From the IMG/VR virus record IMGVR_UViG_3300042393_000799: DNA of 64,000 bases, one strand, 5' to 3'. The position numbers and the translations under genes were made by a program. This DNA comes from a virus. The number at the start of each line of letters is the position of its first letter. The stretch's first letter is position 1. The notes under the pieces are model-generated. The model had not been told where the DNA came from and did not search any database. It saw only the letters and a program-made list of their open reading frames with translations. Of this stretch, positions 18,604 to 62,662 are shown piece after piece.

Positions 18604-19292
18604 ATAATTTTAATATTATTTCCTGCATGATAATGATCTCCTAAAAGAGACCATTTATTTGCATCTTGTTTAACCCACCAATATATATGAGCACCTTTAC
18701 CAGCACATGGCATTGTTACATCAAATCTTTCGAATTTTTCAGTCAACTGACCATTTAGTATCTCGTTTATATTAACCCATGTACCATCTAAATAATTATC
18801 ATCGACTATTACTATAGCACCTGCACCTAATTTGGCTTCAATGGCTTCGAATTCTCGCCAACCATGTAATGCACTAGGTAAAGAATCACGTAAATCCAAA
18901 TCCCATGAATCTAAATGAACAATATCTACATGCTCATCAAACCTCTTTAAAAATTGGACGGAGTCTTCAGTAAAAAATTCTACAAATTCCAAACCTAATT
19001 CTGCAAATGCTGTTTTAGATTTAGCTATTATAATAGGATCTATATCTACGACCCACATTTTACCACCAGTTACTAAAGCTATATTAGCAAAAAAAGTACC
19101 CATCATACCATCTTGCCATGATTGACTAGCTCCAGTTTCTATAATATTAATAGGACCAATAGCTTTTACTTTACCAATTATAGCGCTAACTATAGTATCA
19201 ATTTGTCTTGCTCTTTCAGGTCGACCTCCATTGGCTTCTAGACTAGTTTTATATTGATCTGCTAATCGATTTATTATCCAAAAATTATCCAT
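18585..19292 (-). CDS. putative SAM-dependent methyltransferase (Methyltransf_24/TylF-like), tentative
   Basis: IIETGASQS Gly-rich motif followed by acidic VVDID and HLDSWD blocks. Confidence 0.35.
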   Translation of the reverse strand: MDNFWIINRLADQYKTSLEANGGRPERARQIDTIVSAIIGKVKAIGPINIIETGASQSWQDGMMGTFFANIALVTGGKMWVVDIDPIIIAKSKTAFAELGLEFVEFFTEDSVQFLKRFDEHVDIVHLDSWDLDLRDSLPSALHGWREFEAIEAKLGAGAIVIVDDNYLDGTWVNINEILNGQLTEKFERFDVTMPCAGKGAHIYWWVKQDANKWSLLGDHYHAGNNIKIICQKEV

Positions 19293-22200: not shown

Positions 22201-22488
22201 ATCCATATTAGACGATCTAAATTCTACTTGTTCACCTCTTAAATCATATGCTTTACCAACAATTGGCATAAACGTACGATAAACCTTTATATTAGGGTCA
22301 TATCTAAGAGGGTCATCCAACTTTAGTGCTTTCGACACTAGTGGATGACCCTCGAATAAGAAAGGTTTACTAGAAAATACTATAAGCTGTGACTCACACG
22401 CTTTAGCTAACTTCCTAAGTGTAGGAATTGCTGCTATCGTGTCACCTAATGCAGGCGTATCTATACATATCGCAACTTGTTTTGACAT
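19285..22488 (-). CDS. multidomain glycosyltransferase (GT9 heptosyltransferase-like N- and C-terminal domains flanking a GT4 domain)
   Basis: N-term ICIDTPALGDTIAAIPTLRKL (GT9); middle FLAPHLSTGGMPQFV and EAIGHGLI (GT4/GT1); C-term GT9-like GISSGLSWFAWALGAKVIII. Confidence 0.75.
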   Translation of the reverse strand: MSKQVAICIDTPALGDTIAAIPTLRKLAKACESQLIVFSSKPFLFEGHPLVSKALKLDDPLRYDPNIKVYRTFMPIVGKAYDLRGEQVEFRSSNMDIRQFHAVSLGFSLTQDEMEMDLYIERERNLGFENYVIIHPTYTWASRTWDQDKWQELVDRLNDRGIPVVAVGRDSHEVGTFSVDKPVMNLNIKLGVNLLNDPTNDPAELRWMMNHKARAIVTMDSGLLHIAGTTDVNIIQLGSSIDPKLRAPYRKGSQDYKYKYIGGSCDIFCSSNMKYNIIEHGTIQAIPPQLHCLEYKPTFECHPTVDKTFDAVIDLYNDLLVDHVYMKPNTKEMTNKTKLLFLAPHLSTGGMPQFVLKRVEAMLDVKDFEIHLVEYTQYSDIYNVQRDQLIEKLGARFHSLGFLNSIDITERGERLKAKILEINPDIIHIDECPESFDGFNKIDQSAMEWLYNKQWKIVETSHNIWFDPNNKINDPDMYMMCTPYHLETFGNRDGLKPVVEYPILNQKPSAFDKAKSRAKLGLAIDKTHILNVGLWTQGKNQAEGVDIARIVEAQFPGKYHFHFVGNQAENFEQYWGPIMKKLPSNVTIWGERNDVDVFMSACDAFMFNSTWECSPLALREAIGHGLITFSRNLEQYKDMFTPYIVPFTDDLHGNVDQLIKTLKSSEAQGKNIPDDDLKRFTVQHIQWYQQCLTTPRGPQKPPTHKQPEWTLEYQDGPKLTIKSTGSGQLRAEFYDNQDLVWNATDLQAGSWYKPARNWWTQWTVKVYSNDQLVHSERLSLEGQELTVEMASSSLGDTLSFMGQLHTVIDTHKLSKLYVKTHKPWLFDKAWYSSKGIDIIDWSVPNKGALITLGVFYTMEEPWKRAEHKYDWRQIPLGKIASDRLGTEYVEQRPQLAREFLIKSTAKKRSIVIATQSTAQAKYWNNPTGWQETIDWCNSKEISVYHASKEGSQLKGVKQLPEELALVAGAINEAELFIGISSGLSWFAWALGAKVIIISGFTDPYVEFADAIYINNHQVCHGCWGWDTFDKGDWNWCPLWKGTHRQFECTKTIGSDRVINVINKELYG

Positions 22489-37294: not shown

Positions 37295-38002
37295 TTATAT
37301 AAAAGTTATTTCATTAGTTTCAGGATCCCAATCGAACGTTACAGGCTTATTCACATATTCATATCTTTCGTTTAAGATTGATGCGTTAAAGAAGTGAGTA
37401 CCGTTGTGGAATTTGTAACCATATCCACCGTGAATGTGTCCAAATACATGAATCTTAGGTGGTTGTTCATCTACCTTTTCTCTAAGTAATGCACATCCTA
37501 AATGTGGTTCATTATATGGAGGACCACTCACATCTAAATGATCTTGTGGAGGTCCATGTGTGATAAGAATATCAGTATCTTTAGGAATTGCTTCCCATTT
37601 TGACATTAATCCAGGACCACCCTTTGGTAAGTTAAATGCCCAACTATAGAATTCAGGTTGCCATGGACTACCATAAATAACGGTTTGTTGGTCATCTTGA
37701 TCCCATAGATCTAATCGATTATCTTGAAGATATTCAATGTTTTTATAAGAGGTATAAATCTCACTTGCCATTTCTGGGTCAGTTTCAAAGATTCTGTCAT
37801 GATTTCCTGCAATAAAAACTTTATTGCTATATTGCTCTAATCCTTCAAACCATTTACAAAATTGGTGAATATCCATTGGATTTCTACCAGAATTCATAAG
37901 GTCTCCTGCGTGGATTAATAAGTCTCCACCTGGGAGATCTTTAGGGTCGTAAGATAACTCATCGTGCTTTGTGTGAGTATCTGAAATTAATGTTATTCTC
38001 AT
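37295..38002 (-). CDS. calcineurin-like metallophosphoesterase
   Basis: motifs ISDTH, GDLMNSG, AGNHD, ITHGPP, GHIHGG. Confidence 0.78.
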   Translation of the reverse strand: MRITLISDTHTKHDELSYDPKDLPGGDLLIHAGDLMNSGRNPMDIHQFCKWFEGLEQYSNKVFIAGNHDRIFETDPEMASEIYTSYKNIEYLQDNRLDLWDQDDQQTVIYGSPWQPEFYSWAFNLPKGGPGLMSKWEAIPKDTDILITHGPPQDHLDVSGPPYNEPHLGCALLREKVDEQPPKIHVFGHIHGGYGYKFHNGTHFFNASILNERYEYVNKPVTFDWDPETNEITFI

Positions 38003-38495: not shown

Positions 38496-38507
38496 ATTGT
38501 TTATCTT

Positions 38508-38588
38508 TTAATTATAAGGCTAATATACATAAAAAAAGCCAAACAAAAAAATGTTTGACTGATTATTTTTTAAAAAGTTACGAACATT
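38508..38588 (-). promoter_or_regulatory. repeated intergenic cassette
   Basis: ttaattataaggctaatatacat...agccaaacaaaaaaatgtttgact...ttattttttaaaaagttacgaacattt. Confidence 0.65.
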
Positions 38589-38857: not shown

Positions 38858-39334
38858 TTATTCTACGTCTTTTAATTCTGTTCTTAATCTACCAATTGCA
38901 CCTTCTAAAGTATTATAGACTGGAATGTTGTGTCGACTGCAAACTATATCTACATTTCCTTTGCGCCAAAATTCATCTGGACAACAAACAATCATTTTTT
39001 CAGATGCAGCATGCATACCAAGTTCTAATAAACTGATTGGACTCTTGGTTTCTGGAGAAAAGTACATGAAAATAATATCGCATTCATCTAACTTATTCAT
39101 TTCCCAATTTACTTGTCCACTGAATTGTGGATTAGATTCTTTTTGTTCCCATGAACTATCCCAATCATCTCTACGAGGATTGAAAAAAACCAAGTTTTGA
39201 CGATCTTTAAATAATTCAGGAATTACTGCTTGCCAATCTTCTGCTTTTCCCATTTCAATAGAACCTGCTAAAAATATTTTAACATGATGATCGTTATAAT
39301 ATGCATTTTTTGGTTCTGGTTTAATTACTTCCAT
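38858..39334 (-). CDS. nucleoside 2-deoxyribosyltransferase-like protein
   Basis: IFLAGSI...FNP...ECDIIFMYF...SLLELGMHAASEKMIVCCPD pattern of the family. Confidence 0.5.
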   Translation of the reverse strand: MEVIKPEPKNAYYNDHHVKIFLAGSIEMGKAEDWQAVIPELFKDRQNLVFFNPRRDDWDSSWEQKESNPQFSGQVNWEMNKLDECDIIFMYFSPETKSPISLLELGMHAASEKMIVCCPDEFWRKGNVDIVCSRHNIPVYNTLEGAIGRLRTELKDVE

Positions 39335-39593
39335 TTTCTTTGTGTATTGAATTTTTACAATTTCCTTTATGGGATCCCCATTGAGTATTACCCATTCCGA
39401 CTACAATATATTCACAACCTTCAAGAGTGTAGACTCTATAATTTTGATCAGAGTATTGTGAATTACTATCAAGTTCCATTCGATGCGGATTCGGTTGAGT
39501 TGAAACTTGTACATTACCTTCGCAGCTTGTAACCACAAAGGCTACAAGCGCTGCAAAGATTAATATTAATAATGTTACATTTTTTCTGTTCAT
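39321..39593 (-). CDS. small lipoprotein
   Basis: signal peptide + lipobox VTSC. Confidence 0.45.
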   Translation of the reverse strand: MNRKNVTLLILIFAALVAFVVTSCEGNVQVSTQPNPHRMELDSNSQYSDQNYRVYTLEGCEYIVVGMGNTQWGSHKGNCKNSIHKENGSN

Positions 39594-41173
39594 TATGAAT
39601 TAGTTAAACGTTCACGAATTTCTGTTAGTGTAGTTTGGTTTTCGAATTGGCCATCTTTATAGATAGTTTTTAATTTACCAGTGGCTTCATTTTCCCAAGT
39701 ACATTGATCTTCTAATAAGAAACATGTTTCGTCTCCGGCAACTCTTAATAAACCTTTTGCAGATTTCTTAATACCGTCATCAGTGATTGGATCTTTAAAG
39801 ATTTCACGACCTGTGATGATTTCTTCTGAATGTGTATAGTTACCATTCTCGTCTTTAACAGTTCTAAAATGTTCTTTAACTTCAACATAAGTTGCTTTCA
39901 TTGCAAAACCAAAAGTATCTCTAGTGTTATATTGGTATGTAAAACTTCCAACGCCTAATACAATATTTGTACTTGCGAAACCTTTTGCTTCTAATCTTGT
40001 AAAGATTTGTTCTGCACGATCTAACGTTATTGAATCTCCGTAGATTGCTCCAATATGAGAATCAAGAACTTTGTAACCTTGTTCATTGATAGTTCCACCG
40101 AATACATCCCAAAGTAATTCAATAACTCCTTTTACTTCTGGTTTGTTTAAATATTCATCGGTAGGATTAACTTCTGCTACTCCACCTAAGTAAGCAACCA
40201 CATCATTATCATGGTGCGCGTTTGTTTTAATAACACTTGCGCCGCAAATAATATCTACTGGATCACCAGAGTCGGGTCTAATAACTACCTTACCATCACG
40301 AGCTAAAATCTCTTCTTTCAAGGTAACAATATGTTCAGTACAAACTTTCCATAAGTCCCAAGTATCTGATACGATTGAAAGAATTCCTGTTGGATATGTT
40401 TCCATCAAGTTTCTAAATGTTCCAACCTCATCTTCTTTAGATCCAGCACACATAACTGAGTGTTCAGTTGCATTCACAGATCCAGCAACAAATCCAGTTT
40501 CTCCATAGAATTTACGAGCTCCAAAGATTGCTGGTAAACTGTCTGAACCTGAGAAACTTGTTAAGTGACCCAATCCTGAACTAATAGTTGCATCAATAGA
40601 ATCTAAACCTCTCATTGAAAAATCATGTGCTTGCCAATCTACGAACCAACCTTTTTCAGCATCGGTTTTTTCTTGCCATGATGTAAATAATTTACGGTAA
40701 GCATGTGCAATAGTTGCTGAAGTCATTGGTTTCCATAACAAGTTAGAAATAATTGTTTCTAAGTAGTTTGTAATCCAATAGAAATCTGGATGTGTATTGT
40801 AAATTGTCAATACAGGAACTCTCATTGGTACTAAAGAACCTTCTTCGATTGTTTTTACCACGATTGGTAAATAACCTAAATCATGTAATGCTTCAAAGTG
40901 ACTAACATCATAGTCAGTATTTAAGTACATTGACAATTCACGTTTCATTTCGCCGCAAACTTCATCTTTAGGTTTGCTAAAGAAATCTTTGTCAAATGCT
41001 TCGTGAATTTGTTTGATTACCATTTGTTGTCCAAATGATACTAATTGGTCGCATCCTTTAGGAGCATACTTATTACTTCTAGGTGTGAAGTTTGAATAAA
41101 CCAACGTTGTTCCTTTTGGATATTGTTGGTGATGTCCTGTTTTGTAACCGTCTGTTAAAAATAATGGGTTCAT
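39593..41173 (-). CDS. nadV: nicotinamide phosphoribosyltransferase-family enzyme (NadV/NAMPT, or the Namat variant)
   Basis: N-terminal signature LFLTDGYKTGHHQQYP and full-length (526 aa) similarity pattern to NAMPT. Confidence 0.82.
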   Translation of the reverse strand: MNPLFLTDGYKTGHHQQYPKGTTLVYSNFTPRSNKYAPKGCDQLVSFGQQMVIKQIHEAFDKDFFSKPKDEVCGEMKRELSMYLNTDYDVSHFEALHDLGYLPIVVKTIEEGSLVPMRVPVLTIYNTHPDFYWITNYLETIISNLLWKPMTSATIAHAYRKLFTSWQEKTDAEKGWFVDWQAHDFSMRGLDSIDATISSGLGHLTSFSGSDSLPAIFGARKFYGETGFVAGSVNATEHSVMCAGSKEDEVGTFRNLMETYPTGILSIVSDTWDLWKVCTEHIVTLKEEILARDGKVVIRPDSGDPVDIICGASVIKTNAHHDNDVVAYLGGVAEVNPTDEYLNKPEVKGVIELLWDVFGGTINEQGYKVLDSHIGAIYGDSITLDRAEQIFTRLEAKGFASTNIVLGVGSFTYQYNTRDTFGFAMKATYVEVKEHFRTVKDENGNYTHSEEIITGREIFKDPITDDGIKKSAKGLLRVAGDETCFLLEDQCTWENEATGKLKTIYKDGQFENQTTLTEIRERLTNS

Positions 41174-41186
41174 ATATTAATTGTTT

Positions 41187-41267
41187 TTAATTATAGAGTA
41201 AATATACATAAAAAACCTGACATAAAAAAATATCAGGTGATTTATTTTAAAAAAGTTATTAACAATC
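41187..41267 (-). promoter_or_regulatory. repeated intergenic cassette
   Basis: ttaattatagagtaaatatacat...acctgacataaaaaaatatcaggt...ttattttaaaaaagttattaacaatct. Confidence 0.65.
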
Positions 41268-41717
41268 TACAAGATTTGCTAAAACACTCTTAACTATACC
41301 GATTTCTGCACGACCTTGGTATCTTTTGTTAAATTCGCCAATAGTTTTACCTTGTAATGCTTGTGGATTTGTAACTATTCCACTAAATTCTTGCATAATT
41401 TCTGTAAGAGCATCTACAATTTCTTGAGGTTCCATTTGTGCTGGCATATATCTTCTTAAGATTGCACACTCTTCTGATTCTTTTTTAGACAATTCTGGTC
41501 TATTTGCCAAATCATACATTTTAATGGATTCCTCACGTTGCTTGATTCCTTTATTAATTATTTTAATAACCTCTTCATTCGTTGCAACCCAAGTTCCATT
41601 TCCCTTTTCAGCATTCGTGATTGCTGCTTTAATACTATTAAGTGCCATTTTGGCTACTTCGTCTTTTGCTTTCATTGCAGTTATAAAGTCTGCATTTATT
41701 TGTTCTCTAATTATCAT
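41259..41717 (-). CDS. YqeY/GatB-domain protein
   Basis: REQINADFITAMKAKD...LRRYMP pattern of YqeY family. Confidence 0.6.
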   Translation of the reverse strand: MIIREQINADFITAMKAKDEVAKMALNSIKAAITNAEKGNGTWVATNEEVIKIINKGIKQREESIKMYDLANRPELSKKESEECAILRRYMPAQMEPQEIVDALTEIMQEFSGIVTNPQALQGKTIGEFNKRYQGRAEIGIVKSVLANLVDC

Positions 41718-42552
41718 TGTCTATGTTTTTAGTTGGGTTTATTAATCCTTTAATGAACCATCTGTCTTGTGTAAATGTTGGAGTTTCTACAACTTGCCAT
41801 TTGTTTCTCATTACAATTTGAGTAGGGTCTATTACATGTGTTTCACCATCATTAATAAACTCTTTGGTTTTTACAAGTACTGGAACTTCCACCTTTGCAA
41901 TTACTGCACCTCGTTTTAGACGAAAATCATAGTCATTCCAATTGATTCCTTTTTGGAAGATCAATTCTTGCATGTCACTTGTTTTTTTACCATGTAATTC
42001 TTTAGTACTATAAAGACTTTGAGCAACTGAAGAAATTGAATTTCTTACAGCGTCTTGTTGTCTCCAGATAAAATAGTTTTCTACCTCATCAATAAATGGA
42101 ATTTGAAATGCTCTTGCGTCGAATTCAGCCATTTTGAATTTTTCAATATGTTCCGGTTCTAAAAAGATCATGCTATTTTTCATGTATCTCATTAACCTAA
42201 GTTTATTGAATTCTGCAGTGGCCATAGAAGCAGCAACTGATACCATTTTTTGTAGGTTGTTGTCAAACCAAGCGTGAGTTCCTAGGTCATCAAAGTCTGT
42301 TAGAACTAAACTAATCTCATCTGATTGTACATAACCAAATTTAGCACCTTGAATGTTTTTACATAAATATGCAGTAGTTGCATTCATGTCTTCAATAAGT
42401 CCTTGGTCAAATGGTCTCTCTAATCCTTTCGTATAGGTGTGAAAGGCTTTTCCGTCAATACGGATAATTGTAAATGTTCTCCTTGGGAGTTTGATTCTAG
42501 TTCTATCTTCGTAGAACTCTTTCATGCGATCGCCTAATGCATCGTTTTTCAT
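41707..42552 (-). CDS. Thg1-like 3'-5' nucleotidyltransferase (tRNA-His guanylyltransferase family)
   Basis: family motifs RIDGKAFHTYTKGL and GYVQSDEISLVL (cf. Thg1 RLDGRNFH / AYGQSDEYSF). Confidence 0.75.
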   Translation of the reverse strand: MKNDALGDRMKEFYEDRTRIKLPRRTFTIIRIDGKAFHTYTKGLERPFDQGLIEDMNATTAYLCKNIQGAKFGYVQSDEISLVLTDFDDLGTHAWFDNNLQKMVSVAASMATAEFNKLRLMRYMKNSMIFLEPEHIEKFKMAEFDARAFQIPFIDEVENYFIWRQQDAVRNSISSVAQSLYSTKELHGKKTSDMQELIFQKGINWNDYDFRLKRGAVIAKVEVPVLVKTKEFINDGETHVIDPTQIVMRNKWQVVETPTFTQDRWFIKGLINPTKNIDNDN

Positions 42553-42629
42553 AATATATGTTATTGTGCAACCGTCGTTAGTTGGATGCTGGTTATAAGT
42601 ATTATATTAAATACTTTTATTTTGTTTCA

Positions 42630-43205
42630 CTATTTTAAAGTGATTTGCAAAGTTGCTTGATATGCCGAATGTTTAAATGGATCCCCTTCAGTTTCTCTAG
42701 AAGCTCCGGCAAATAATTCTCTTGCTCTTTCAATACCATGATATTTCATGATTAGTGTTGCTGCAGATGGAACTGTTATAGGCATCTTTTCTCCATGCTC
42801 TTCGATAATTTTATCAACTTCAATTTTGATTTGTTCAACAAAGGTTGGTTTCAATCTATCCAAAGACTCTTCTAACATTTCAGAGAAGCATGTACCACCA
42901 TTATAGAATTGTCCCATAAATGAAAGGCTTCCGTCGCTATTTCTAGTAACATTCATAAAGTATTCTGAATCTTCAGATTCTACATGATCGATAACTCTAT
43001 AAAGTTTCTCTCCATAGATAAAATACTCTTCCTTTTGACTGTTTCTTTTATTAGAGTACTCGTCAAAAGCATCCATAAAATCTTCTTGCCAATCCTCGCC
43101 TAATTCAACATCAAATCGTTTTGCAATACTTCTACAAGTCTCTTCTAAACTTTTCTCAATTTTGACTGGATATAATTTTCCGGTATGAAATTCTGTTCTA
43201 CTCAT
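42630..43205 (-). CDS. hypothetical protein
   Basis: 191-aa ORF. Confidence 0.4.
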   Translation of the reverse strand: MSRTEFHTGKLYPVKIEKSLEETCRSIAKRFDVELGEDWQEDFMDAFDEYSNKRNSQKEEYFIYGEKLYRVIDHVESEDSEYFMNVTRNSDGSLSFMGQFYNGGTCFSEMLEESLDRLKPTFVEQIKIEVDKIIEEHGEKMPITVPSAATLIMKYHGIERARELFAGASRETEGDPFKHSAYQATLQITLK

Positions 43206-43357
43206 CTTCGTCTTTATTAAAATCCGTTATTTTTACTAAAATATAAAATGGAACTATAATTGCATAAAATTCCCATTGGTACCAGCTGATATTTGCAAAT
43301 GCTGATAGAGCAAATCCTAAATATGATGGTGCTAATAATTCTACTAATCTTTTCATA

Positions 43358-43642
43358 TTAAATTACTTTAAATTCTGTTCTACTAATTCTTTCAGTGCTT
43401 CCTCCGTGTTCAGTTGCAAGTCTTCTATCTAATGCTTCAATAAAATACTGTTGTGCTCTATTGTCTGGTCTAGTATCTGGATCGATAAATCTTAAAAACA
43501 TATCAACTTGCTCTGGTCTATAACCTCTCATGAATTTTTGATTGAATATTTCAAAGTTTGTTAAAATTTTAATATATCCATGTTCAAATAAATATTGAAC
43601 TGCAGCATCTACTAATCTTGTAGTTTTACCTGATTGTCTCAT
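43358..43642 (-). CDS. mini P-loop protein (Walker A at residues 4-9)
   Basis: MRQSGKTTRLVD; stop codon immediately upstream in frame so start is genuine. Confidence 0.35.
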   Translation of the reverse strand: MRQSGKTTRLVDAAVQYLFEHGYIKILTNFEIFNQKFMRGYRPEQVDMFLRFIDPDTRPDNRAQQYFIEALDRRLATEHGGSTERISRTEFKVI

Positions 43643-44138
43643 TTCTTAATTGATTTTTTACAAGAGTTAATGCTTGTCCTAAAAGATTTAAACCTAACCA
43701 ATATGATGGATCATCAATTCCTTCGGCATTTTCATCAAGACCAATTCCCCAAATATTATCTAATGGAGAAGCCTCTACAAAGATACGATCACCAGTATTT
43801 AACATTTCTTCTCTTAATCCAGCATTTTGTCTGAATTTTGCCAAGTTTCCTTCATAAACAATTGCCAAACAATTTTTATCCCAAGTTGCTTTATCAAAGT
43901 TTTGGATTTGTCTACCATATTTCTTTTGCTCTCTTGGATTCGTTTCCTCCATAATCAAACTTGCTACAATATCATCTCCAAATAATAATGCCTTTTGATG
44001 CATCATATATTGTTCACATGAATTATATTCAATCTTGTCAATTGTCATTGGAGCTTTATGCCATTGTGAGTAAATTCCATTCCAGAAAAATACATGTTTA
44101 TCTGTTACTTTCATATTATTTGTTTTTAAATTGTTCAA
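43626..44138 (-). CDS. NADAR-domain protein (YbiA-like ADP-ribose/N-glycosidase superfamily)
   Basis: FFW...SQW...EYNSCEQYMMHQKALLF...GRQIQNFD..W...KF.QN..L...LLNTG...VEASP.DNIWGIG. Confidence 0.75.
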   Translation of the reverse strand: MNNLKTNNMKVTDKHVFFWNGIYSQWHKAPMTIDKIEYNSCEQYMMHQKALLFGDDIVASLIMEETNPREQKKYGRQIQNFDKATWDKNCLAIVYEGNLAKFRQNAGLREEMLNTGDRIFVEASPLDNIWGIGLDENAEGIDDPSYWLGLNLLGQALTLVKNQLRNETIR

Positions 44139-44328
44139 GATTTTTTACCTTTTCTCTGAAACTTTCTAAAACTTCATATTCGGTTGTTTGTTTTAATAAT
44201 GAAATGGCTTTTTCTAAAGCATTGTCCTTTTCTATATTAACAACTACTTCATTATCAATTGAAGCTTTAAATGAAACTAATTTAGAACCTTTTCCTAAAA
44301 TTATTCCTTCTGGTGAAGATTGTGACAT
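44116..44328 (-). CDS. hypothetical small protein
   Basis: 70-aa ORF. Confidence 0.3.
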   Translation of the reverse strand: MSQSSPEGIILGKGSKLVSFKASIDNEVVVNIEKDNALEKAISLLKQTTEYEVLESFREKVKNLEQFKNK

Positions 44329-44331
44329 ATT

Positions 44332-44826
44332 CTATTTGTTTAAAATTCTTATTGCTCTATTTGTGCATTCTTTAGTTAATCCATAACCAATATCGATACA
44401 ATCTGGATGATTAATATTGGTCGATGTTTGTACAAAGTTCATTCGTTGACTCTTTAACATATCCGTGTCATCATCAAGAATAACGTAATTAGTTATTTCA
44501 GGTTGTCTATCGAGAATTGACTGTATTTCATCTCCACGAACCATTTCTGGGCCACCTTCTAAATCATGGTTCCATCTAAGATCTGGTGTAATTCCAATTA
44601 TTTCTCCAGGATATTGACGTTGTTTCCACATTCTATGTAGTCTTTCCAATCCCATGTGTCTCCATGAAGAACTAATAACTAATTTTGCTCCGGTTTCATC
44701 AATGATTCTACCTAGATTTTCTACAAATTCAGGATGGAATATTCCACCGAAATCATCATGTCCTTGAGGAATTACATTTAATACACCGTCAAAATCTAGA
44801 AAAATAACCTTCATCTTATTTAACAA
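44332..44826 (-). CDS. HAD-superfamily phosphatase of the RNA-repair-associated (HAD_SAK/PNKP-like) type
   Basis: VIFLDFDGVLN at N-terminus; small single-domain HAD. Confidence 0.5.
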   Translation of the reverse strand: MLNKMKVIFLDFDGVLNVIPQGHDDFGGIFHPEFVENLGRIIDETGAKLVISSSWRHMGLERLHRMWKQRQYPGEIIGITPDLRWNHDLEGGPEMVRGDEIQSILDRQPEITNYVILDDDTDMLKSQRMNFVQTSTNINHPDCIDIGYGLTKECTNRAIRILNK

Positions 44827-45029
44827 CTACCGAATCTATAAGATTGAAATCCGCCTTCTTCGCTTGGATGAAATCCTAATTCATCTAATCTTTTCGTGTC
44901 CTCTTCGGATACATCTTCTTCGTCAATGTGACAAACATAAAGAACATCATGTTCGCAATGAGTAGGCCATTTTTGTTCAGGATCCATGTATTTAGCTAAT
45001 ATGATTAGCGCTTCTATTAAATCTTTCAT
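44820..45029 (-). CDS. hypothetical small protein
   Basis: 69-aa ORF. Confidence 0.3.
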   Translation of the reverse strand: MKDLIEALIILAKYMDPEQKWPTHCEHDVLYVCHIDEEDVSEEDTKRLDELGFHPSEEGGFQSYRFGSC

Positions 45030-45032
45030 TTC

Positions 45033-45596
45033 TTATGGTTTATAAATTACTACCGACACTTTCATGTCTTTTAATTCTGTTTGAATAATCCTTTTAATTC
45101 TATTCCAATCTCCACCTGCTAATCCTGCTCCAATCTTTGGCAATCCAATATGTTTACCTTCAAATTGAAAATTGATCTTACGCATACAAAGAGTTAATGC
45201 CTCATAATCTAAAGGTTTTGAAACTCCATCGGTATGATTCTTACCATATCTGAATTGAGTGTATGAATTTACAACTGATAATTCAGGTTCATTCCTTTTA
45301 TTATCGGCGTCTTCTAAAGACCAGATTGTATTTTGACCAATGACGAATGTTTGCCAATCGATACATCCGAGCTTTTCAATGGTTGCTCCCCAAGTTTCCA
45401 TTTCAAAACGGTCAACTCCAAACGCTTTTGCCATTTGCGGTGCTATTCCAGCTCCCATATTTGACAAGCAATTACAACCATGTGTAATTACATCAAACTT
45501 TCCCTGTTTTGCTAGTGCAATTAAATCACCTTCTATTTCTTGATAATTTGTATCAACATCTATCATCGATTTCATAAATTTGTTTAATTCTCCCAT
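45033..45596 (-). CDS. Macro-domain (ADP-ribose-binding/processing) protein
   Basis: ITHGCNCLSNMGAGIA and GLPKIGAGLAGG blocks. Confidence 0.65.
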   Translation of the reverse strand: MGELNKFMKSMIDVDTNYQEIEGDLIALAKQGKFDVITHGCNCLSNMGAGIAPQMAKAFGVDRFEMETWGATIEKLGCIDWQTFVIGQNTIWSLEDADNKRNEPELSVVNSYTQFRYGKNHTDGVSKPLDYEALTLCMRKINFQFEGKHIGLPKIGAGLAGGDWNRIKRIIQTELKDMKVSVVIYKP

Positions 45597-46093
45597 TATG
45601 CTAGTCTAAATCGTTTTAAAAATTCTCTTAAGAAAATGATCTGATCTGCTTCCTTTTCTGTTTCAGCAAATTTCATCTTCCATTCATAATAATCCATTTC
45701 GATTGGTGTTGTACCATCTATATAATATGGACCAACATAATCAGGCCAGTGGGTTTTGTCAAATGCTCTGTCATCAACTAAGAAAACTACAGCTGTCATT
45801 TGATCACCCAAATCTGGCTCATGAAATTCTCCAACTTTAATACCTCGATCTGTTAATTCAAAATAGTTTTGCTGAAGAGTTCCTAATCTCATGCTACTGT
45901 CATTAGTAGTTCCACCATTTAAAATAATAAATGTTTTGTCTATTTTCGCCCATTCTTGGTATTCTGGAGTATTAAAGAAGTCAAGTCCATATTCTACAAC
46001 AGCATGTCCAAATTGGATACCTTGTTGGATTGGGCTTAAATTATAAGGCACCAATCCATACATTCGATATTCTCTATTGTAAATAGATTCCAT
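45596..46093 (-). CDS. possible PTH2-like (peptidyl-tRNA hydrolase 2 / DUF2000-like) protein, tentative
   Basis: LVPYNLSPIQQGIQFGHAVV resembles PTH2 GKIAAQxxHA core. Confidence 0.3.
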   Translation of the reverse strand: MESIYNREYRMYGLVPYNLSPIQQGIQFGHAVVEYGLDFFNTPEYQEWAKIDKTFIILNGGTTNDSSMRLGTLQQNYFELTDRGIKVGEFHEPDLGDQMTAVVFLVDDRAFDKTHWPDYVGPYYIDGTTPIEMDYYEWKMKFAETEKEADQIIFLREFLKRFRLA

Positions 46094-46228
46094 TACTCTG
46101 CTTCCTCGTTTTCAGATTCTTCTACTTCAACTTCTCTTAATTCATATCTTGAACCTAAGATTGGATCGTGTACTAGTACAATAACTTCTTGTACTTGCTT
46201 TTCTACTGCTTTTGCTTTTTTAGCCATC

Positions 46229-46444
46229 TTATATTAAATTTAATTGTGTTAGTTCTTCAATGGCAGCATCGAATGCTTCTTGCCATGTTCTGTATAAATA
46301 CCAATCTCTTACTTCAATTTTTTCATAGTTACCAAAGTGTTCATATTTGTATATGTCAAATGCAAACTTTGGAGCACTTGTACGGTCTACTTCTATTTCT
46401 ATAACGTAACCATGCTGTGTAAATAAAGAATCTATTGTATACAT
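46229..46444 (-). CDS. hypothetical small protein
   Basis: 71-aa ORF. Confidence 0.3.
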   Translation of the reverse strand: MYTIDSLFTQHGYVIEIEVDRTSAPKFAFDIYKYEHFGNYEKIEVRDWYLYRTWQEAFDAAIEELTQLNLI

Positions 46445-47376
46445 TATATTACTTTAAATGCAGTTGTGTTTGTTTTTACATCATATTCATTATCAGCAAT
46501 ATCTCTATGAGAATTTGTTGTGTAAATACGTTCGAAATATTTGTTTAGCTCTGTAAAACCAGCACTAAATATTCCATGAGTAACTACTAAATAAATTTTA
46601 GCACTTGGTCTGCTTGCTTTAATAGCTTTAGCTAATTCAATAAAAGTTCTACCACCATCACAAATATCATCAATGATTACATATTTCATATCATCATTAA
46701 CTGAGTTAGGGTCTCCGATAGATCCTGGTAAGTTTGGTACTTCTGTTTTAAGAATGTTACCAGTTCTCATATCTCTAACTTTGTTTGCCGTAACAATATT
46801 TTGGATTTGAAACTTCTTAGCAACATCAAAGATTTTCTTGTATGCACCAGCATCTGGGCTTACTAAACAAATTCTTTCTTGAGCATCTCTCTTATTATCA
46901 ATATCTGTAAGTGCATATTTAACTACTGTATGATTATCTGTTTTCTCATAGTTATTTAAACATGCTTCTAAAACATCTGAATGTGGATCCAATGTAATTA
47001 CTGTTATGAAGTTTAAAGAGTTAATGATTGGACAAATAACTTGTTTCAAATAGTTAACACCACCGTCAACAAATTTACGATCTGAACGAGCTCCCATGAA
47101 GTATGGAACGTAAAGTGCGATTTCTCGATTTGGTTTAATATTTCTGATTGCTGCTGTTGCACAAATAATTAATTCTAAGTCCTTAAAACTATTTAAACGT
47201 GAACTGATTTTTACAGCATCTTCATATATCATTAAGTCATTCCAATCAATAAGGTCTACTGTTTGTTGACCATCTGGAAATTGACTAATTTTGTATTTAA
47301 TGTCTGATTTTTCTGGATTAACTAAGTCTAATGTTATCATCTTTAAGTTGTTTTTAATTATATGTAAATATACCAA
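46444..47376 (-). CDS. prs: ribose-phosphate pyrophosphokinase-family enzyme (Prs, or the ADPR-pyrophosphokinase Adps variant)
   Basis: PYFMGARSDRK, TLDPHS, VSPDAGAYKK, PRTase motif VIIDDICDGGRTF. Confidence 0.8.
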   Translation of the reverse strand: MVYLHIIKNNLKMITLDLVNPEKSDIKYKISQFPDGQQTVDLIDWNDLMIYEDAVKISSRLNSFKDLELIICATAAIRNIKPNREIALYVPYFMGARSDRKFVDGGVNYLKQVICPIINSLNFITVITLDPHSDVLEACLNNYEKTDNHTVVKYALTDIDNKRDAQERICLVSPDAGAYKKIFDVAKKFQIQNIVTANKVRDMRTGNILKTEVPNLPGSIGDPNSVNDDMKYVIIDDICDGGRTFIELAKAIKASRPSAKIYLVVTHGIFSAGFTELNKYFERIYTTNSHRDIADNEYDVKTNTTAFKVI

Positions 47377-47434
47377 AAAGTTTTGACATAAAAAAATATA
47401 TGTGTGATTATTTTATCAAAACTTGTTAACAATT
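47354..47434 (-). promoter_or_regulatory. repeated intergenic cassette (weak hairpin variant)
   Basis: ttaattatatgtaaatatacc...ttgacataaaaaaatatatgtgtga...ttattttatcaaaacttgttaacaatt. Confidence 0.55.
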
Positions 47435-52729: not shown

Positions 52730-53374
52730 TTACCAATTTTTCTTGTAATGCACATCATCAACCCATGAGAATAAACGTGTCTCTTCAACATCATGCAAGA
52801 TAATAGTCTTATCAGTTACTTTGTCATTATAGAAATATTCATAATTAAATAAAGCGACATCCAGATCCATTTTTTCAATAATCTTATTATTGAATGTTTT
52901 ACATCCATGAGCCCATGTAATTCTATCATAAACACTAAGACATTCATTTATGATTCTACTTTGAGGTGTAGATCCATAAACTGTACAATCAATAAGAGTA
53001 TTGTGTTCTTGAGTTGGTTTCATACCTGCAAAGAATGTATGTTCTTCTGAGAGTTGATCCAATATTATATCAAATGGTCTAATTGGTTTTGCATCTATAT
53101 CACAATAAATACCTCCAAAATCTCTAAGTAATAATAACCTAACTCTATCGGCAATAAAAGCCCATTTATAAATTTCAGGTTCTTTTACATAGTTTTGTAA
53201 AAATGGATCATCTTTGTACAAATCATTGAAAATATCATCATGACTCCATAACTTATATTCCCAATCTGGATGCATTGCTTGCATCTCTTCTCCAAATCTT
53301 TTGCACCAATCTGGTACTTCTTTATAGCCAATCCAAACTTGATGTAGTTTCTTTGGTATTTTATTTACTGTCAT
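52730..53374 (-). CDS. DxD glycosyltransferase (GT32/OCH1-like 'Gly_transf_sug')
   Basis: KIPKKLHQVWIG N-terminal motif and CDIDAKP DxD motif. Confidence 0.55.
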   Translation of the reverse strand: MTVNKIPKKLHQVWIGYKEVPDWCKRFGEEMQAMHPDWEYKLWSHDDIFNDLYKDDPFLQNYVKEPEIYKWAFIADRVRLLLLRDFGGIYCDIDAKPIRPFDIILDQLSEEHTFFAGMKPTQEHNTLIDCTVYGSTPQSRIINECLSVYDRITWAHGCKTFNNKIIEKMDLDVALFNYEYFYNDKVTDKTIILHDVEETRLFSWVDDVHYKKNW

Positions 53375-53597: not shown

Positions 53598-54185
53598 TTA
53601 TTTTATATATTTAAATAGATTTAATACCTCTGGGCACTCAAATCTTTCTGGGTGCCATTGAACTGCAATGATTTTAAGTGCTTCGTCTTCTATAGCTTCT
53701 GGAATCCAACCACCATCAAAAGACATATGTGTCACTTTAAAATTATCTGCAATAATTGAGCACCATTGATGATGCCTAGAATTAACTTCAAACATTACAT
53801 CGTCTAAGTTTTTGATGTAATGAAATTGTGATTCTCTTTCACTATGATCTTCATCATCTGAGAATTCATCACTTTGATGATATTCTACTATTCTGTCTTT
53901 TAGATCTTCTACCTTGCCACCAAAATAGTGATTCAATATTTGCATGCCACGACAAACACCAATGATTGGTTGTTTGGCATCAATTGCCATTTTTATCCAA
54001 TTAAGTTCACGCGTATCTCGATCTACATTTATACCAATATCTGCACCACCGCAAAGTATAAGAGGAGCATCGATCCTTTTGTATCTAAGATCTATCATAA
54101 CAGGTTCATAACCCTTTGATATAATCCAATCAATATATGCCTTTCCTTCTATTTCACCTTTCGGTGGTGCAACAAATACCTTCAA
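53598..54185 (-). CDS. class I glutamine amidotransferase-like / peptidase C26 (gamma-glutamyl hydrolase-type)
   Basis: catalytic-Cys motif GVCRGMQ and IAVQWHPE. Confidence 0.7.
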   Translation of the reverse strand: MKVFVAPPKGEIEGKAYIDWIISKGYEPVMIDLRYKRIDAPLILCGGADIGINVDRDTRELNWIKMAIDAKQPIIGVCRGMQILNHYFGGKVEDLKDRIVEYHQSDEFSDDEDHSERESQFHYIKNLDDVMFEVNSRHHQWCSIIADNFKVTHMSFDGGWIPEAIEDEALKIIAVQWHPERFECPEVLNLFKYIK

Positions 54186-54192
54186 ACCTTTT

Positions 54193-54423
54193 TTATTTTT
54201 TTATAACAACTTGTCTAATTCTATCAAACACTTTTTCTAAATCTTCAATTGAATCTACTGACCATGAATTTGTTTTTAAAACAAAAAAGCAATCACCATC
54301 TCTGTCGATACCTAGTGAACTTTTCGCTTCTACTTCCAAGAATTCATATTCATCGTCAGATAAACAGTTTGCATCTTGTGAAAATCTAAACTTTGCCTCT
54401 TCTAAAATTAATCCTTGTTCCAT
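54193..54423 (-). CDS. hypothetical small protein
   Basis: 76-aa ORF. Confidence 0.3.
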   Translation of the reverse strand: MEQGLILEEAKFRFSQDANCLSDDEYEFLEVEAKSSLGIDRDGDCFFVLKTNSWSVDSIEDLEKVFDRIRQVVIKK

Positions 54424-54434
54424 ATTAATTATAT

Positions 54435-54653
54435 TTAAATTTTACCAAATTCAGTTGTATTATTGCCACATTTTTTGCAATAATATTTGTATCCATAGAC
54501 AATTGTACTTTTATTTCCAGCCTTAATATCATTGACATAATATTCTTCACGATCTTGGTTACAATAGCCTCCTTTTTTACATTTAGGAAGAGATTGCATA
54601 TAATTCCAAAAGTCTTCTTGTAGAAACTTAATAAATCTCAACAATTTTTTCAT
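54435..54653 (-). CDS. small zinc-ribbon-like protein
   Basis: CKKGGYC ... CKKCGNN cysteine pairs. Confidence 0.35.
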   Translation of the reverse strand: MKKLLRFIKFLQEDFWNYMQSLPKCKKGGYCNQDREEYYVNDIKAGNKSTIVYGYKYYCKKCGNNTTEFGKI

Positions 54654-59211: not shown

Positions 59212-61842
59212 ATGTCATTAACTCCAAAAACAATAGGTCAATTAAATCCAATTGATCAAGTTACAGCTACTACATTATTTTTAGCTGAAAAAAATGGTGC
59301 TACAGTTCATGTACCATATTCTGAAATTGCAGGTGTAAACTACACAGAACTAACTTATGCTGAATTAACAGGATTAATATCAGTTGTTGGTTTAGTACCG
59401 GGTAACTTCTATATGATAACAGATTTCCAAACATGCTATGATCAACCTAATTTTGACTGGAATGGTAATGCTATCAGTAATGAAAACACATATAAAGTTG
59501 GTAATATTGAGTCATTAATGGTTTTGGCTTTAGCTGCAGATAGAATTTCATCAACAACTTATTCACCAGAATATCCTAAAGACAAAATTCAATATGACGT
59601 TACTTGGAATCAAACTGAGTTTACTAATAGTGGTGCTAAAGGTAGAATTACAGAAAGAATCGATGAAAGAAATAATAGAGCTGATTATGATTTTAGAAAT
59701 GTACAATTTATAAGACATGAAGCTTTAATGGCAGATTCTTATTATGAAGGTACTGTTAGTGTTGGAGAACCTTTTTTCGTGTATAATCCTGAAACACAAG
59801 AACAATTAATCGGACCTGATGGACCAATAATGCATGCAACAGTAACCGGAACTAATACTAGTTTTACAAATAGTTTCTATGTTGGTGATTATCTTGCTGT
59901 TTTTAACACAAATAATATCGGTTGTCATAACTTCTATGAAGTTGTTGGAATTGAAAATGATACAACAATGACTGTTGCTGGTATTTCATATGGTTGGGAA
60001 TATAACGCTACATATTCTAAAGGTTGGACAAAAGGTCTTAGAAGTCCATTTAAATGTAATGCACCATCTTTGCGTTTCAATTCTGAACAATTTTATACGT
60101 TTAATGATAACGATAGTAATAATACTTATTTAGGTGATAATAGAGACTATAATTCTTTTATTTTATCAAATAATGTTTTCTTAGACGGTACATATAATGA
60201 TAATTATTTTGGTGCTAATGTACAAAATAATACATTTGATGATGATATGGACGGTAACAGAATAGGTCTTTATTTCCAAAATAATATCATGACTGATGAT
60301 TTTGATAGAAACACCATTGGAAATTATTTTACAAATAACTGGATTGATTGTGATATGGCTAGAAATCAAATTGGTGATGGCTTTGAACATAATACTTTAG
60401 CTGATAATGATGGTTATGATTTTAGTAATAATGTTATACGAAATAATTTTAAATATAATTTCGTAACTATGTCAAACGGTGAGTTCATGAAAAATATCAT
60501 CAATGATGATTTTCAAAGAAACATAATAGACGATACATTTATAGCTAACACTATTGATTTTGATTTCGGTAATAACATTTGCCATGATACGTTTGAAAAC
60601 AATAGAATTGGAAATGCATTTAGAGAAAATAAAATCACAAACAATTTCGGTGATAATGTAATTGGTAATTATTTTATAGCTAATATATTAGAAGGTGGTG
60701 ATAATAACACCATCGGTAATAATTTTCAAAATAATACAATTGGATATGATTTTAGATTCAATACAATTGGTCATAATTTTACCAATAACACTATTGCATC
60801 AGACTTTGGATTTGGTTATGGTGAATCAAGAGGAAATGTAATTGGTAATTTCTTTACTGGTAATAACATTGGTGAATATTTTTATAGTAATCATATCGCT
60901 GATAACTTTAGTACTAATAATATCGGTCATTGGTTTCAAAATAATAAAGTTGATGTTGTTGGTTTATCTGGTGTGAATTTTAAAGAAAAACTTAATTCTA
61001 TAGCTACAGTTTCAATAAACATAGGAGAATCTACATATACTGATGGTGTTTATAATGTATACCAAACTGCTAACTATTCTGGTAGTGAAGGTACTGGTGC
61101 ACAATTTACAATTACAGTTTCTGGTGGCTCAATCACTAATATTGAAATAACTAATGGAGGTAACTTATATAATGTTTACAATATAATCGGAATTTCAATG
61201 GATCAAATTCCTGGAAGTACGCAAGATCTAAGTTTAGTTGTTAATACTCTTACAGCAATGCCTTTAGTTTATGAAACAATAAATTCTACTATTTTAAGAG
61301 GATTTGATACAATTGAAGGTAATGTTCCTATGATTAGTGTATTAAGCATGAGCGCAGGAGGAAATGGAGTTTATATTTCAAAAGACTATAAAGGACCTTT
61401 TGTTTTAGATGAAGGTGGAAACAACGGTGGAGGTGGAAACACTGGATCAGGTTCTTGGTACTTCTATACTGCTGAAGGAGCATTCACAGTTGGACCTCCT
61501 ACATCAGACGGTCAAGCGATATTTACAGATAATAACTCAGGTTCTGGAACTCTTTCAACATTTAATCCAAATAATAATACAGGAATTGACTATCTTAACT
61601 TTTGCTTAAAAGACAGCGCAGGTACTGATTATACAACTCAATTCACTGCTTTACAAAATAACGGTGGAACTATATCAGTTACACAAAATGGTAATACAGC
61701 AACTTACACTCTTATGTCAAACATGGCGTATGTTAATGCAGGTCCAGGTTTTATAAGTATTAACACTGCTGCAGCAACTCAAACTGTAACAGCAGCTTCA
61801 TCATTTGTATATGGTGATCCAATATCAATATCTTTTAGTTAA
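59212..61842 (+). CDS. repeat-rich (beta-helix-type) fibre/receptor-binding-like protein
   Basis: 876 aa; ~25 tandem 11-12-residue repeats of form N-x-I-G-N-x-F-x-x-N (e.g. DRNTIGNYFTNNWID, ENNRIGNAFRENKITNNFGDNVIGNYF); Gly/Asn/Thr-rich C-terminus. Confidence 0.55.
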   Translation: MSLTPKTIGQLNPIDQVTATTLFLAEKNGATVHVPYSEIAGVNYTELTYAELTGLISVVGLVPGNFYMITDFQTCYDQPNFDWNGNAISNENTYKVGNIESLMVLALAADRISSTTYSPEYPKDKIQYDVTWNQTEFTNSGAKGRITERIDERNNRADYDFRNVQFIRHEALMADSYYEGTVSVGEPFFVYNPETQEQLIGPDGPIMHATVTGTNTSFTNSFYVGDYLAVFNTNNIGCHNFYEVVGIENDTTMTVAGISYGWEYNATYSKGWTKGLRSPFKCNAPSLRFNSEQFYTFNDNDSNNTYLGDNRDYNSFILSNNVFLDGTYNDNYFGANVQNNTFDDDMDGNRIGLYFQNNIMTDDFDRNTIGNYFTNNWIDCDMARNQIGDGFEHNTLADNDGYDFSNNVIRNNFKYNFVTMSNGEFMKNIINDDFQRNIIDDTFIANTIDFDFGNNICHDTFENNRIGNAFRENKITNNFGDNVIGNYFIANILEGGDNNTIGNNFQNNTIGYDFRFNTIGHNFTNNTIASDFGFGYGESRGNVIGNFFTGNNIGEYFYSNHIADNFSTNNIGHWFQNNKVDVVGLSGVNFKEKLNSIATVSINIGESTYTDGVYNVYQTANYSGSEGTGAQFTITVSGGSITNIEITNGGNLYNVYNIIGISMDQIPGSTQDLSLVVNTLTAMPLVYETINSTILRGFDTIEGNVPMISVLSMSAGGNGVYISKDYKGPFVLDEGGNNGGGGNTGSGSWYFYTAEGAFTVGPPTSDGQAIFTDNNSGSGTLSTFNPNNNTGIDYLNFCLKDSAGTDYTTQFTALQNNGGTISVTQNGNTATYTLMSNMAYVNAGPGFISINTAAATQTVTAASSFVYGDPISISFS

Positions 61843-61969: not shown

Positions 61970-62662
61970 TTATCTTGATGAAAATTTTCTTTGTAAGTCC
62001 AATGTTTCGAAAAATGGATTTAATCTAACGTATGTACTATTTGATCTTTGAATATCTGTAGCATTTTCACATAAACATGCATCTGCTGGAAATATACCTT
62101 TTTTATTTATAAAATTTAAGATTTCTTGGGCACCTTTGGGTGTTATTATATATCCATATGCGCCTCTAAAAGTGCTTCCAGTTACAGACTTATCTCCATA
62201 AAATTTACTAATAGGGTGTTTTTTAACTCCACTAGTATAAAGTTTGATAGCATCATTATAAGCTTTAAAGTGTTCATGTTCTGTAACAGCACCTGAATTA
62301 TTAAAGGGTAAATATGCATCTAAATGACATGCATTTTCTATTAAGTGTAGTATTTCTCTAGGATCTCTAACTAAAACAGCATCTTGTTCAAGAATTAAAA
62401 AAGGTTGATCTTGTTTAGAGCACTCGTCCCATAATAAATAATGACTTGCTAAACAACCGATAGTACCATCGGTCCAATCTTCCATATTAACATATGCTGA
62501 GGGTTTTGCATTATAAGATTTTAAAACTTCAATGCCTTTTCTGCCTACAACTCCATCAAATAATTCATAGTCGATATCGAATTTGTTCAAAGACTTTATG
62601 GTATCTTTTACCATGGTCTCTGAGAATTCATTGCCCTTTAGATAAATTATATGTGTTTTCAT
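61970..62662 (-). CDS. family GT25 glycosyltransferase (LPS core glycosyltransferase-like)
   Basis: HIIYLKGNEFSE...YELFDGVVGRKG...GTIGCLASHYLLW...FLILEQDAVLVRD pattern of GT25. Confidence 0.65.
   Translation of the reverse strand: MKTHIIYLKGNEFSETMVKDTIKSLNKFDIDYELFDGVVGRKGIEVLKSYNAKPSAYVNMEDWTDGTIGCLASHYLLWDECSKQDQPFLILEQDAVLVRDPREILHLIENACHLDAYLPFNNSGAVTEHEHFKAYNDAIKLYTSGVKKHPISKFYGDKSVTGSTFRGAYGYIITPKGAQEILNFINKKGIFPADACLCENATDIQRSNSTYVRLNPFFETLDLQRKFSSR

Follow-up and report, generated by a model that had tools for sequence, protein, structure and literature searches.

The two genes considered here raise the question of which route to nicotinamide adenine dinucleotide (NAD+) they serve. 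They lie in a viral DNA stretch of 64,000 nucleotides (IMG/VR record IMGVR_UViG_3300042393_000799), which as a whole is called the window below; one encodes a protein resembling the nicotinamide-using transferase Nampt, the other a protein resembling the ribose-phosphate pyrophosphokinase Prs. Two phage pathways, NARP1 (Adps and Namat) and NARP2 (Nampt and NMNAT), were defined by Osterman et al. 2024 (bioRxiv 10.1101/2024.02.11.579819), and NARP1, published in 2024, was reported in about 4% of phages. Judging from the signature residues, the clade assignments and the conserved linkage described below, the two genes very probably form the NARP1 pathway, with the Prs-like protein as Adps and the Nampt-like protein as Namat.

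Identity of the two enzymes

46444-47340, minus strand: putative Adps (ADP-ribose pyrophosphokinase, Prs-like), 298 amino acids, recognised by its ligand residues, PP (pyrophosphate) loop and C-terminal loss
39593-41173, minus strand: putative Namat (nicotinamide ADP-ribose transferase, Nampt-like), 526 amino acids, recognised by its PDB score, clamp motif, catalytic core and clade

With about 31% G+C the window is AT-rich, and nearly all of its genes are on the minus strand. Both open reading frames (ORFs) named in a preliminary description of this DNA were recovered where it had placed them, on the minus strand and with the peptides quoted from them: the Nampt-family ORF at 39593-41173 (526 amino acids, containing LFLTDGYKTGHH; Pfam NAPRTase and NAMPT_N) and the Prs-family ORF listed at 46444-47376 (310 amino acids, containing PYFMGARSDRK; Pfam Pribosyltran and Pribosyl_synth). 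The genes and their place could thus be retained, but the start of the Prs-like gene had to be moved. It is most likely the ATG at 47340 and not the TTG at 47376, giving 298 amino acids, since the exact 298-residue protein is present letter for letter in a public protein collection (P0001), a Logan contig calls the gene as the same 298-residue protein, and the TTG-started extension overlaps the conserved upstream cassette.

The structure of the SPbetaL1 Namat was solved by Lan et al. (PMC12774641), who described a selectivity clamp with two parts, a helix motif (SCH) and a variable loop (SCL). The best PDB matches of the Nampt-like protein were these crystal structures (9w5x/9w5w, 485 bits), while the true Nampt structures scored 207 bits (Xanthomonas, Xcc) and 174-177 bits (mammalian). 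The helix motif found only in Namat, GS-X-Phi-X-Phi-X-Phi-TRD with aromatic X residues (PMC12774641), is present as G409-SFTYQYNTRD-419 and is identical to that of SPbetaL1 (390-400) and FADO; the KVP40-type phage Nampt reads GGGLLQxxxRD at this position. In the loop, Namat enzymes have Arg, Lys or Tyr at the third position and a stacking residue adjoining it (PMC12774641). The window protein reads TPRSNK35-Y36 there, the same pattern as in FADO (TPRSNKY) and Bas63 (K42-W), and K35-Y36 reproduces the Lys-then-aromatic arrangement known from Bas63. The catalytic core is intact, with D8, Y10, F185, R188, D211, H238, R299 and D301 corresponding to D13, Y15, F189, R192, D215, H245, R306 and D308 of SPbetaL1.

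When the Nampt-like protein was compared with GenBank phages by tblastn (45 sampled records), the scores appeared to form two groups, one of 301-498 bits with the ICP1, Staphylococcus K-like, Felixounavirus and mycobacteriophage kinds (Namat-type) and one of 138-211 bits with the KVP40-like, GAP32 and Slopekvirus phages (Nampt-type). The Namat/Nampt split was obtained in 100 of 100 neighbour-joining bootstraps, the Nampt side of the tree being three phage Nampt of the KVP40 type. Identity to the validated Namat members was 35-49%, and to the KVP40-type Nampt 27-28%. Residues 316-338 and 436-453 are insertions specific to this lineage when compared with the validated enzymes. These data support the placement of the Nampt-like protein in the Namat clade, with an adenine clamp and ADP-ribose pyrophosphate (ADPR-PP) as its predicted preferred substrate.

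For the Prs-like protein, structures of the ICP1 Adps with ADP-ribose (ADPR)/ATP and with the products are available from Liu et al. (PMC13586617). The contacts to ADPR and ATP named there are F18, R87, F92, H121, D161, K185, D212, D213, the PP loop 215-220 and F221, and the loss that defines the family is that of the C-terminal alpha11-alpha12 module of Prs (PMC13586617). The window protein was aligned, in the 298-residue numbering, with the Adps of ICP1, Bas63, Bas60, SPbetaL1 and FADO and with E. coli Prs, all taken from annotated records. Every residue named for ICP1 is conserved (F21, R85, F90, H120, D163, the catalytic K187, D224, D225, I226, C227-T232 and F233), and the position of ICP1 F223 is E235 in the window protein, as it is in Bas63 and Bas60. 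The Bas63 and Bas60 Adps have exactly the same PP loop, DDICDGGRTF, whereas Prs reads DDMIDTGGTL; DPHSDV stands in place of DLHAEQ of Prs, and the beta-hairpin reads KVRDMRTGNI against DKRRPRANV. The alignment stops about 25 residues short of the Prs C-terminus, with no helix of the LAEAIRRI type, in agreement with the loss of alpha11-12. An insertion of about 11 residues ahead of the PP loop (about residues 204-218) is shared with the cyanophage Lbo-JY46 and is lineage-specific.

A profile comparison of the two proteins had been proposed in the preliminary description as a way to tell the two routes apart. All the sequence-level criteria drawn from the primary literature came out on the side of Adps and Namat, and the Prs-like protein remained below the threshold of all 11 Prs models of NCBIfam, its best score being 76.9 bits on TIGR01251 (cut-off 113). 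On this model validated or operon-linked Adps scored 96-138 bits and E. coli Prs 423 bits, the range of E. coli Prs on the NCBIfam Prs models being 423-533 bits. The Adps/Prs split was found in 100 of 100 bootstraps; the support was obtained by explicit counting of splits, which replaced a misleading Biopython value on the re-rooted tree (45% for the Adps clade). Identity to the validated Adps members was 31-38%. In pairwise BLAST the Prs-like protein gave 70 bits to the SPbetaL1 Adps and 51-63 bits to Prs, and the validated Adps were equally distant from one another; pairwise BLAST alone does not place the protein, because Adps proteins are highly divergent among themselves. The PDB sequence search with the Adps, in a copy of the database lacking the ICP1 Adps structures, returned Prs only, with no score above 50 bits.

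When the 7.8-kb region was compared with GenBank phages by megablast, the only match spanned 52 nucleotides. By sequence comparison the phage represents a lineage without a close sequenced relative, the nearest by protein being the cyanophage Lbo-JY46 (44% for Adps). Regarding the host, an Adps of 78% identity (P0103) was found on a contig binned as a Dolichospermum metagenome-assembled genome, and among GenBank phages the Leptolyngbya phage Lbo-JY46 (L001), a cyanophage, comes closest for Adps; a hint pointing elsewhere is that the closest GenBank relatives of the Macro protein described below belong to Cellulophaga phages.

Linkage of the pair and its upstream cassettes

IMG/VR was scanned twice, and 82 loci encoding relatives were collected, 71 of which hold both genes. 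The two were linked in 71 of the 71, with Adps preceding Namat in nearly every case, and the loci with only one of them were cut at a contig edge or had no flank. No gene separated the two in 14 of the 71 loci, one gene in another 14, two genes in nine, and more than 10 genes (up to 22) in eight. The content of the interval varied among the relatives. An exact Adps-Macro-Namat trio was present in four loci (L035, L062, L064, L070); the single intervening gene was nucleoside 2-deoxyribosyltransferase-like (NDT-like) in L073 and L074, and the same trio with one extra ORF was seen in L039, L042, L045 and L084. The interval was expanded as in the window in L003/L026, L004, L012, L013, L016 and L020. 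From this range of 0-22 intervening genes, the window can be considered the expanded end of a continuum, and the pair in the window is not a chance neighbourhood.

The regions in front of the two genes are the following.

47351-47420, minus strand: cassette upstream of Adps, a T-rich degenerate hairpin followed by TATATTTAC-N3-TATAATTAAAAACAA, about 10 nucleotides before the ATG
41185-41254, minus strand: cassette upstream of Namat, in which a terminator-like hairpin (41215-41238) and its T run precede the same promoter-like element

The claim that each gene stands behind its own cassette was confirmed by a 70-nucleotide repeat, copies of which (47351-47420, 41185-41254 and 38506-38575) lie each directly upstream of a start codon; the copy at Adps was found as the direct-repeat family D1/D4. 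Read on the coding strand, the cassette consists of an A/T-rich hairpin, a T run and GTATATTTAC-N3-TATAATTAAAAACAA, with the start codon about 10 nucleotides further on, and two of the cassette hairpins scored as terminator-like (41238-41215 and 38560-38537). The 12-mer core has 17 occurrences in the window, mostly upstream of minus-strand genes; 6.4 would be expected, and a count of 17 was not attained in any of 100 shuffles. Further 12-mer sites are at 6979, 8501, 15911, 32671, 36633, 51751, 56626 and 58686. The TATAATTAAAAA cassette is probably a phage-specific unit of terminator plus promoter. The first predicted transcription unit would have Adps at its head and run to the hairpin at 41215-41238; the second would begin with Namat, continue through a 90-residue ORF, an NDT-like gene and a 92-residue ORF, and end at 38537-38560. 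Since the same promoter-like cassette heads both units, co-regulation of Adps and Namat is suggested.

Genes between and beside the pair

The preliminary description had named a NADAR and a Macro gene between the two. Both are present, but they are only two of 13 ORFs in the interval, which spans 41259-46444 and is co-oriented on the minus strand.

46229-46444, minus strand: ORF of 71 amino acids
46093-46227, minus strand: ORF of 44 amino acids, conserved in relatives
45596-46093, minus strand: PTH2-like hydrolase, 165 amino acids (AlphaFold2 model and Foldseek)
45033-45596, minus strand: Macro-domain protein, candidate Adpp (ADPR-1''-phosphate phosphatase; BLASTP, profile, PHROGs)
44820-45029, minus strand: ORF of 69 amino acids
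44332-44826, minus strand: HAD_SAK_2
44116-44328, minus strand: ORF of 70 amino acids
43626-44138, minus strand: NADAR-domain protein, N-glycosidase family (PF08719, TIGR02464)
43358-43642, minus strand: ORF of 94 amino acids
43198-43356, minus strand: ORF of 52 amino acids
42630-43205, minus strand: ORF of 191 amino acids
41707-42552, minus strand: Thg1-like
41259-41717, minus strand: YqeY

Against the experimentally validated Adpp from Vibrio phage Gary (sequence from a supplementary table of bioRxiv 10.64898/2026.01.28.702374), the Macro protein gave a full-length match with 30% identity over residues 21-186 (BLASTP, E 4e-17). The motifs H-x-CNC, MG-GIAP and GLP-IG-GLAGGDW are common to the two. 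It falls into phrog_335, 'phosphatase' (3e-43); as a single sequence it matched Poa1p at E 4e-4, and a profile of its relatives matched BT1257, SCO6735, Poa1p (7e-5) and TARG1 in the PDB. These matches place the protein in the Poa1p/TARG1/DarG class, within which sequence has no power to separate a phosphatase from an ADP-ribosyl-hydrolase; the chances of an Adpp role would be about even. The gene suggests the NARP1-AP variant. It is the fourth gene after Adps in the window, outside the published 'within two genes' rule for this variant, and the rule holds in the four relatives with the exact trio (L035, L062, L064, L070).

The NADAR assignment is confident as regards the family (PF08719, 9.8e-49; TIGR02464, 9.6e-42). 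The gene was near or inside the Adps-Namat interval in six of 65 related architectures. The earlier view that the intervening genes handle ADPR for the pathway is upheld for the Macro protein as far as its homology to a validated Adpp goes, but not for NADAR, which has no demonstrated link with NARP1.

Macro and NADAR might instead form a counter-defence against ADP-ribosylating toxins, in which DNA ADP-ribosylation of the DarT type is reversed by Macro domains of the DarG kind and by NADAR, and would then not feed the pathway. NADAR is an ADP-ribosyl-guanine hydrolase family, NCBIfam includes an anti-phage NADAR model, and the C-terminus of the Macro protein matches the DarG antitoxin model (2e-8) and TARG1, all of which speak for such a function. 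However, the Macro protein is a full-length homologue of a validated Adpp, and three-gene operons exist in which Adps and Namat directly flank its orthologues, a layout shown to act as NARP1-AP. We regard the toxin-directed role as a real though minor possibility.

The conserved protein encoded at 45596-46093 had no Pfam match; its AlphaFold2 model (predicted local distance difference test, pLDDT, 90) led by Foldseek to the PTH2 structures 2zv3, 3erj and 1q7s, and PHROGs labels it 'hydrolase'. In 16 related architectures its gene adjoins that of the Macro protein. The presence of this gene alongside Thg1-like, YqeY and HAD_SAK_2 suggests that tRNA or RNA repair, and not NAD+, is what most of the interval is concerned with. 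Seven phage tRNA genes were found; a cluster at 61.9-63.8 kb contains or adjoins six of these. They include a tRNA-His(GTG) of the phage (63154-63227, minus strand), which thus occurs alongside the Thg1-like tRNA-His guanylyltransferase gene (41707-42552).

Outside the interval, one further gene deserves attention.

38858-39334, minus strand: nucleoside 2-deoxyribosyltransferase-like protein, PF15891 (Pfam 1.4e-35)

This NDT-like gene lies two genes downstream of Namat and ahead of the next terminator-like hairpin. Of all the neighbours of Adps and Namat in this lineage it recurs most often: in 37 of 65 architectures it is at most three genes away or between them, and in 16 it is between them (the loci include L039, L041, L042, L044, L045, L049, L073-L075 and L084). 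The best PDB match of the protein, 4mcj, is itself uncharacterised. The protein keeps an LLELG motif, which we take to resemble the catalytic-Glu motif of NDT enzymes. Within the literature collection searched, no paper was found that ties NARP1 to PF15891 or deoxyribosyltransferase-like genes. On its recurrence near the pair, the gene is a candidate accessory gene.

By analogy with Adpp and RyDEP, which already extend NARP1 in this way, the Adps-Namat interval of this lineage could have become a collecting point for 'feeder' enzymes that widen the recycling done by NARP1. The main candidate would be the NDT-like N-glycosidase, while NADAR and the HAD phosphatases may be secondary ones; enzymes of this kind could set ADPR or nicotinamide free, the sources being N-linked ADPR conjugates or non-canonical breakdown products of NAD+. 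The proposal is tentative, and we consider it unlikely rather than likely to hold.

A 145-residue protein (cluster c38) is found between Adps and Namat in 10 relatives (L023, L036, L040, L046, L050, L071, L072, L075, L077 and L083). From a DxDGT-like motif read by eye, YDFDGTVYDY, it was taken for a HAD-type phosphatase, which might take the place of the Macro phosphatase. Calcineurin-like metallophosphoesterases also recur near the pair, in the window at 37295-38002 (minus strand) and in L034, L024, L041, L057, L076 and L078; these comprise cluster c8 and the window's own family. Elsewhere in the window, sugar or envelope genes were observed: a DAHP/KDO8P-synthase family gene (12534-13286), an NAD-dependent epimerase/dehydratase (17710-18603), a protein of 1067 amino acids with GT9 and GT1 domains (19285-22488), a DXD glycosyltransferase (52730-53374) and a GT25 glycosyltransferase (61970-62662).

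The proposed pathway and its place among known systems

In the NARP1 reading, a host defence of the SIR2, TIR or SEFIR type would cleave NAD+ to ADPR and nicotinamide. Adps would use ATP to transfer a pyrophosphate onto C1'' of ADPR, yielding ADPR-PP, and Namat would exchange this pyrophosphate for nicotinamide, yielding NAD+ directly; because Namat remakes NAD+ directly, an NMNAT would not be needed. The Macro protein, an Adpp homologue within the Adps unit, would convert ADPR-1''-phosphate left by aRES-type defences into usable ADPR. The preliminary description had preferred such an ADPR-based route to salvage by Prs, NadV and NMNAT, and this preference is supported by the clamp and clade of Namat, by the residues and the C-terminal loss of Adps, and by the linkage in 71 loci.

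Several points weigh against this reading. The case is built wholly on sequence, that is, on family assignment, signature residues and conserved linkage; what the two enzymes catalyse, what the Macro protein contributes and how the transcription units run are inferred from it. Promoters and terminators were assigned by consensus matching only, and sigma-70-like sites as a whole are not enriched in the region (37 found, 52 expected). The Prs outgroup was gammaproteobacterial only, which leaves the clade test less strong than its published counterpart. ADP-ribosyl hydrolases of the TARG1 and DarG types resemble the Macro protein to an equal degree. With 13 ORFs between its two genes, the window also falls outside the operational NARP1 rule, which asks for a Namat homologue no more than 10 genes from Adps (Osterman et al., bioRxiv 10.1101/2024.02.11.579819). 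The same study found that SPbetaL1 Namat in vitro also makes nicotinamide mononucleotide (NMN) from phosphoribosyl pyrophosphate (PRPP). Finally, the negative result for NMNAT given below covers the window only; the whole genome is probably much larger, as related contigs measure 117-288 kb.

The last two points bear on the alternative of salvage through PRPP, in which the Prs-like protein would make PRPP and the Nampt-like protein NMN from nicotinamide, with NAD+ completed by an NMNAT either of the host (NadD/NadR-type) or of the phage, encoded beyond the window; the pair would then be NARP2-like or a general metabolic booster. The labels given by Pfam and NCBIfam, Prs-like and NAPRTase/Nampt, agree with it, as do the PRPP-to-NMN activity kept by Namat enzymes in vitro and the partial coverage of the genome. 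However, the Nampt-like protein has the adenine clamp that the KVP40-type Nampt is without and sits in the Namat clade, and the Prs-like protein is below all Prs cut-offs, with the PP loop specific to Adps and the C-terminal loss. In addition, the SPbetaL1 Adps gave no product in a ribose-phosphate control reaction testing Prs activity, and no phage was found with NARP1 and NARP2 together (Osterman et al., bioRxiv 10.1101/2024.02.11.579819). As to the NMNAT itself, its absence from the window, noted earlier, was borne out as far as the scans reached: the scanned ORFs of at least 125 amino acids gave no Pfam match to NMNAT/CTP_transf_like (the second scan omitted an ORF of 876 amino acids at 59212-61842 and a plus-strand ORF of 129 amino acids at 54137-54526), and the six-frame ORFs of the window contained no nucleotidyltransferase motif of the (H/T)xGH type. 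Salvage through PRPP is thus an improbable explanation of the pair. That the two genes are independent neighbours in a variable accessory region, their coupling lost with the 13-gene split, is very improbable, for although they are separated by 13 genes, mostly of a tRNA/RNA-repair type, and also by a terminator-like hairpin and a promoter-like element of its own for the second gene, their orthologues are adjacent or nearly so in most relatives, none of the 71 two-gene loci is unlinked, the single-gene loci stop at a contig edge or are without flank, the upstream cassette is common to both genes, and Adps has no known use without Namat.

Other NAD+ routes were also considered among the scanned ORFs of the window. 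Membership in NARP2, which takes an NMNAT in the same phage, was rejected on the lack of an NMNAT match; NARP3, a PnuC-like transporter with a NadR-like enzyme (PMC13464706), was rejected as there were no PnuC or NadR-type Pfam matches, and the RyDEP variant as there was no match to the RyR domain (PF02026). A stand-alone NUDIX hydrolase of 162 amino acids is encoded at 16494-16982 (minus strand), without an NMNAT domain, unlike NatV of KVP40, and a 4HBT thioesterase lies near it (17308-17700, minus strand).

If the NARP1 assignment is correct, routine labels ('ribose-phosphate pyrophosphokinase', 'nicotinate phosphoribosyltransferase') and the 10-gene rule would both overlook the pathway here, the rule because 13 genes intervene. 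Surveys probably undercount NARP1 in large environmental phages, since eight of the 71 loci in this lineage exceed the 10-gene distance. The variable gene set also gives a short list of accessory candidates, namely the Adpp-like Macro protein, the NDT-like N-glycosidase, NADAR and the HAD phosphatases.

The pathway, the structures of both enzymes and two accessory-enzyme variants are already published. From the NARP2 of Vibrio phage KVP40 (Nampt with a bifunctional NMNAT/Nudix), which like the window has a nicotinamide-using Nampt fold, the window differs in that its NUDIX gene is separate, no NMNAT domain was found in it, and its Nampt-like protein is in the Namat clade with the adenine clamp. 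The RyDEP-extended NARP1 of mycobacteriophage DyoEdafos (bioRxiv 10.64898/2026.05.28.727677) likewise has an extra enzyme within the NARP1 locus; the window has no RyR match, and its inserted genes are Macro, NADAR, HAD, PTH2-like, Thg1-like and YqeY. The NARP1-AP of Vibrio phage Gary (Adps-Adpp-Namat; bioRxiv 10.64898/2026.01.28.702374) has, like the window, a Macro protein of the Poa1p/TARG1 class between Adps and Namat; in the window this protein is known from sequence, has 30% identity and is fourth after Adps, outside the rule. With the NARP1 of Bas63, SPbetaL1, FADO and ICP1 (PMC12774641, PMC13586617) the window shares the same two families, all the signature residues, Adps as the first gene, a single strand and the lack of an NMNAT. 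Those systems, however, are two-gene operons, while in the window the two genes are set apart by 13 others, along with a terminator-like hairpin and a second promoter-like element, and clade-specific insertions are present in Namat and ahead of the PP loop of Adps. What differs in the window is thus the architecture, two predicted units under one promoter class with their head genes 13 genes apart, and the set of putative accessory genes.

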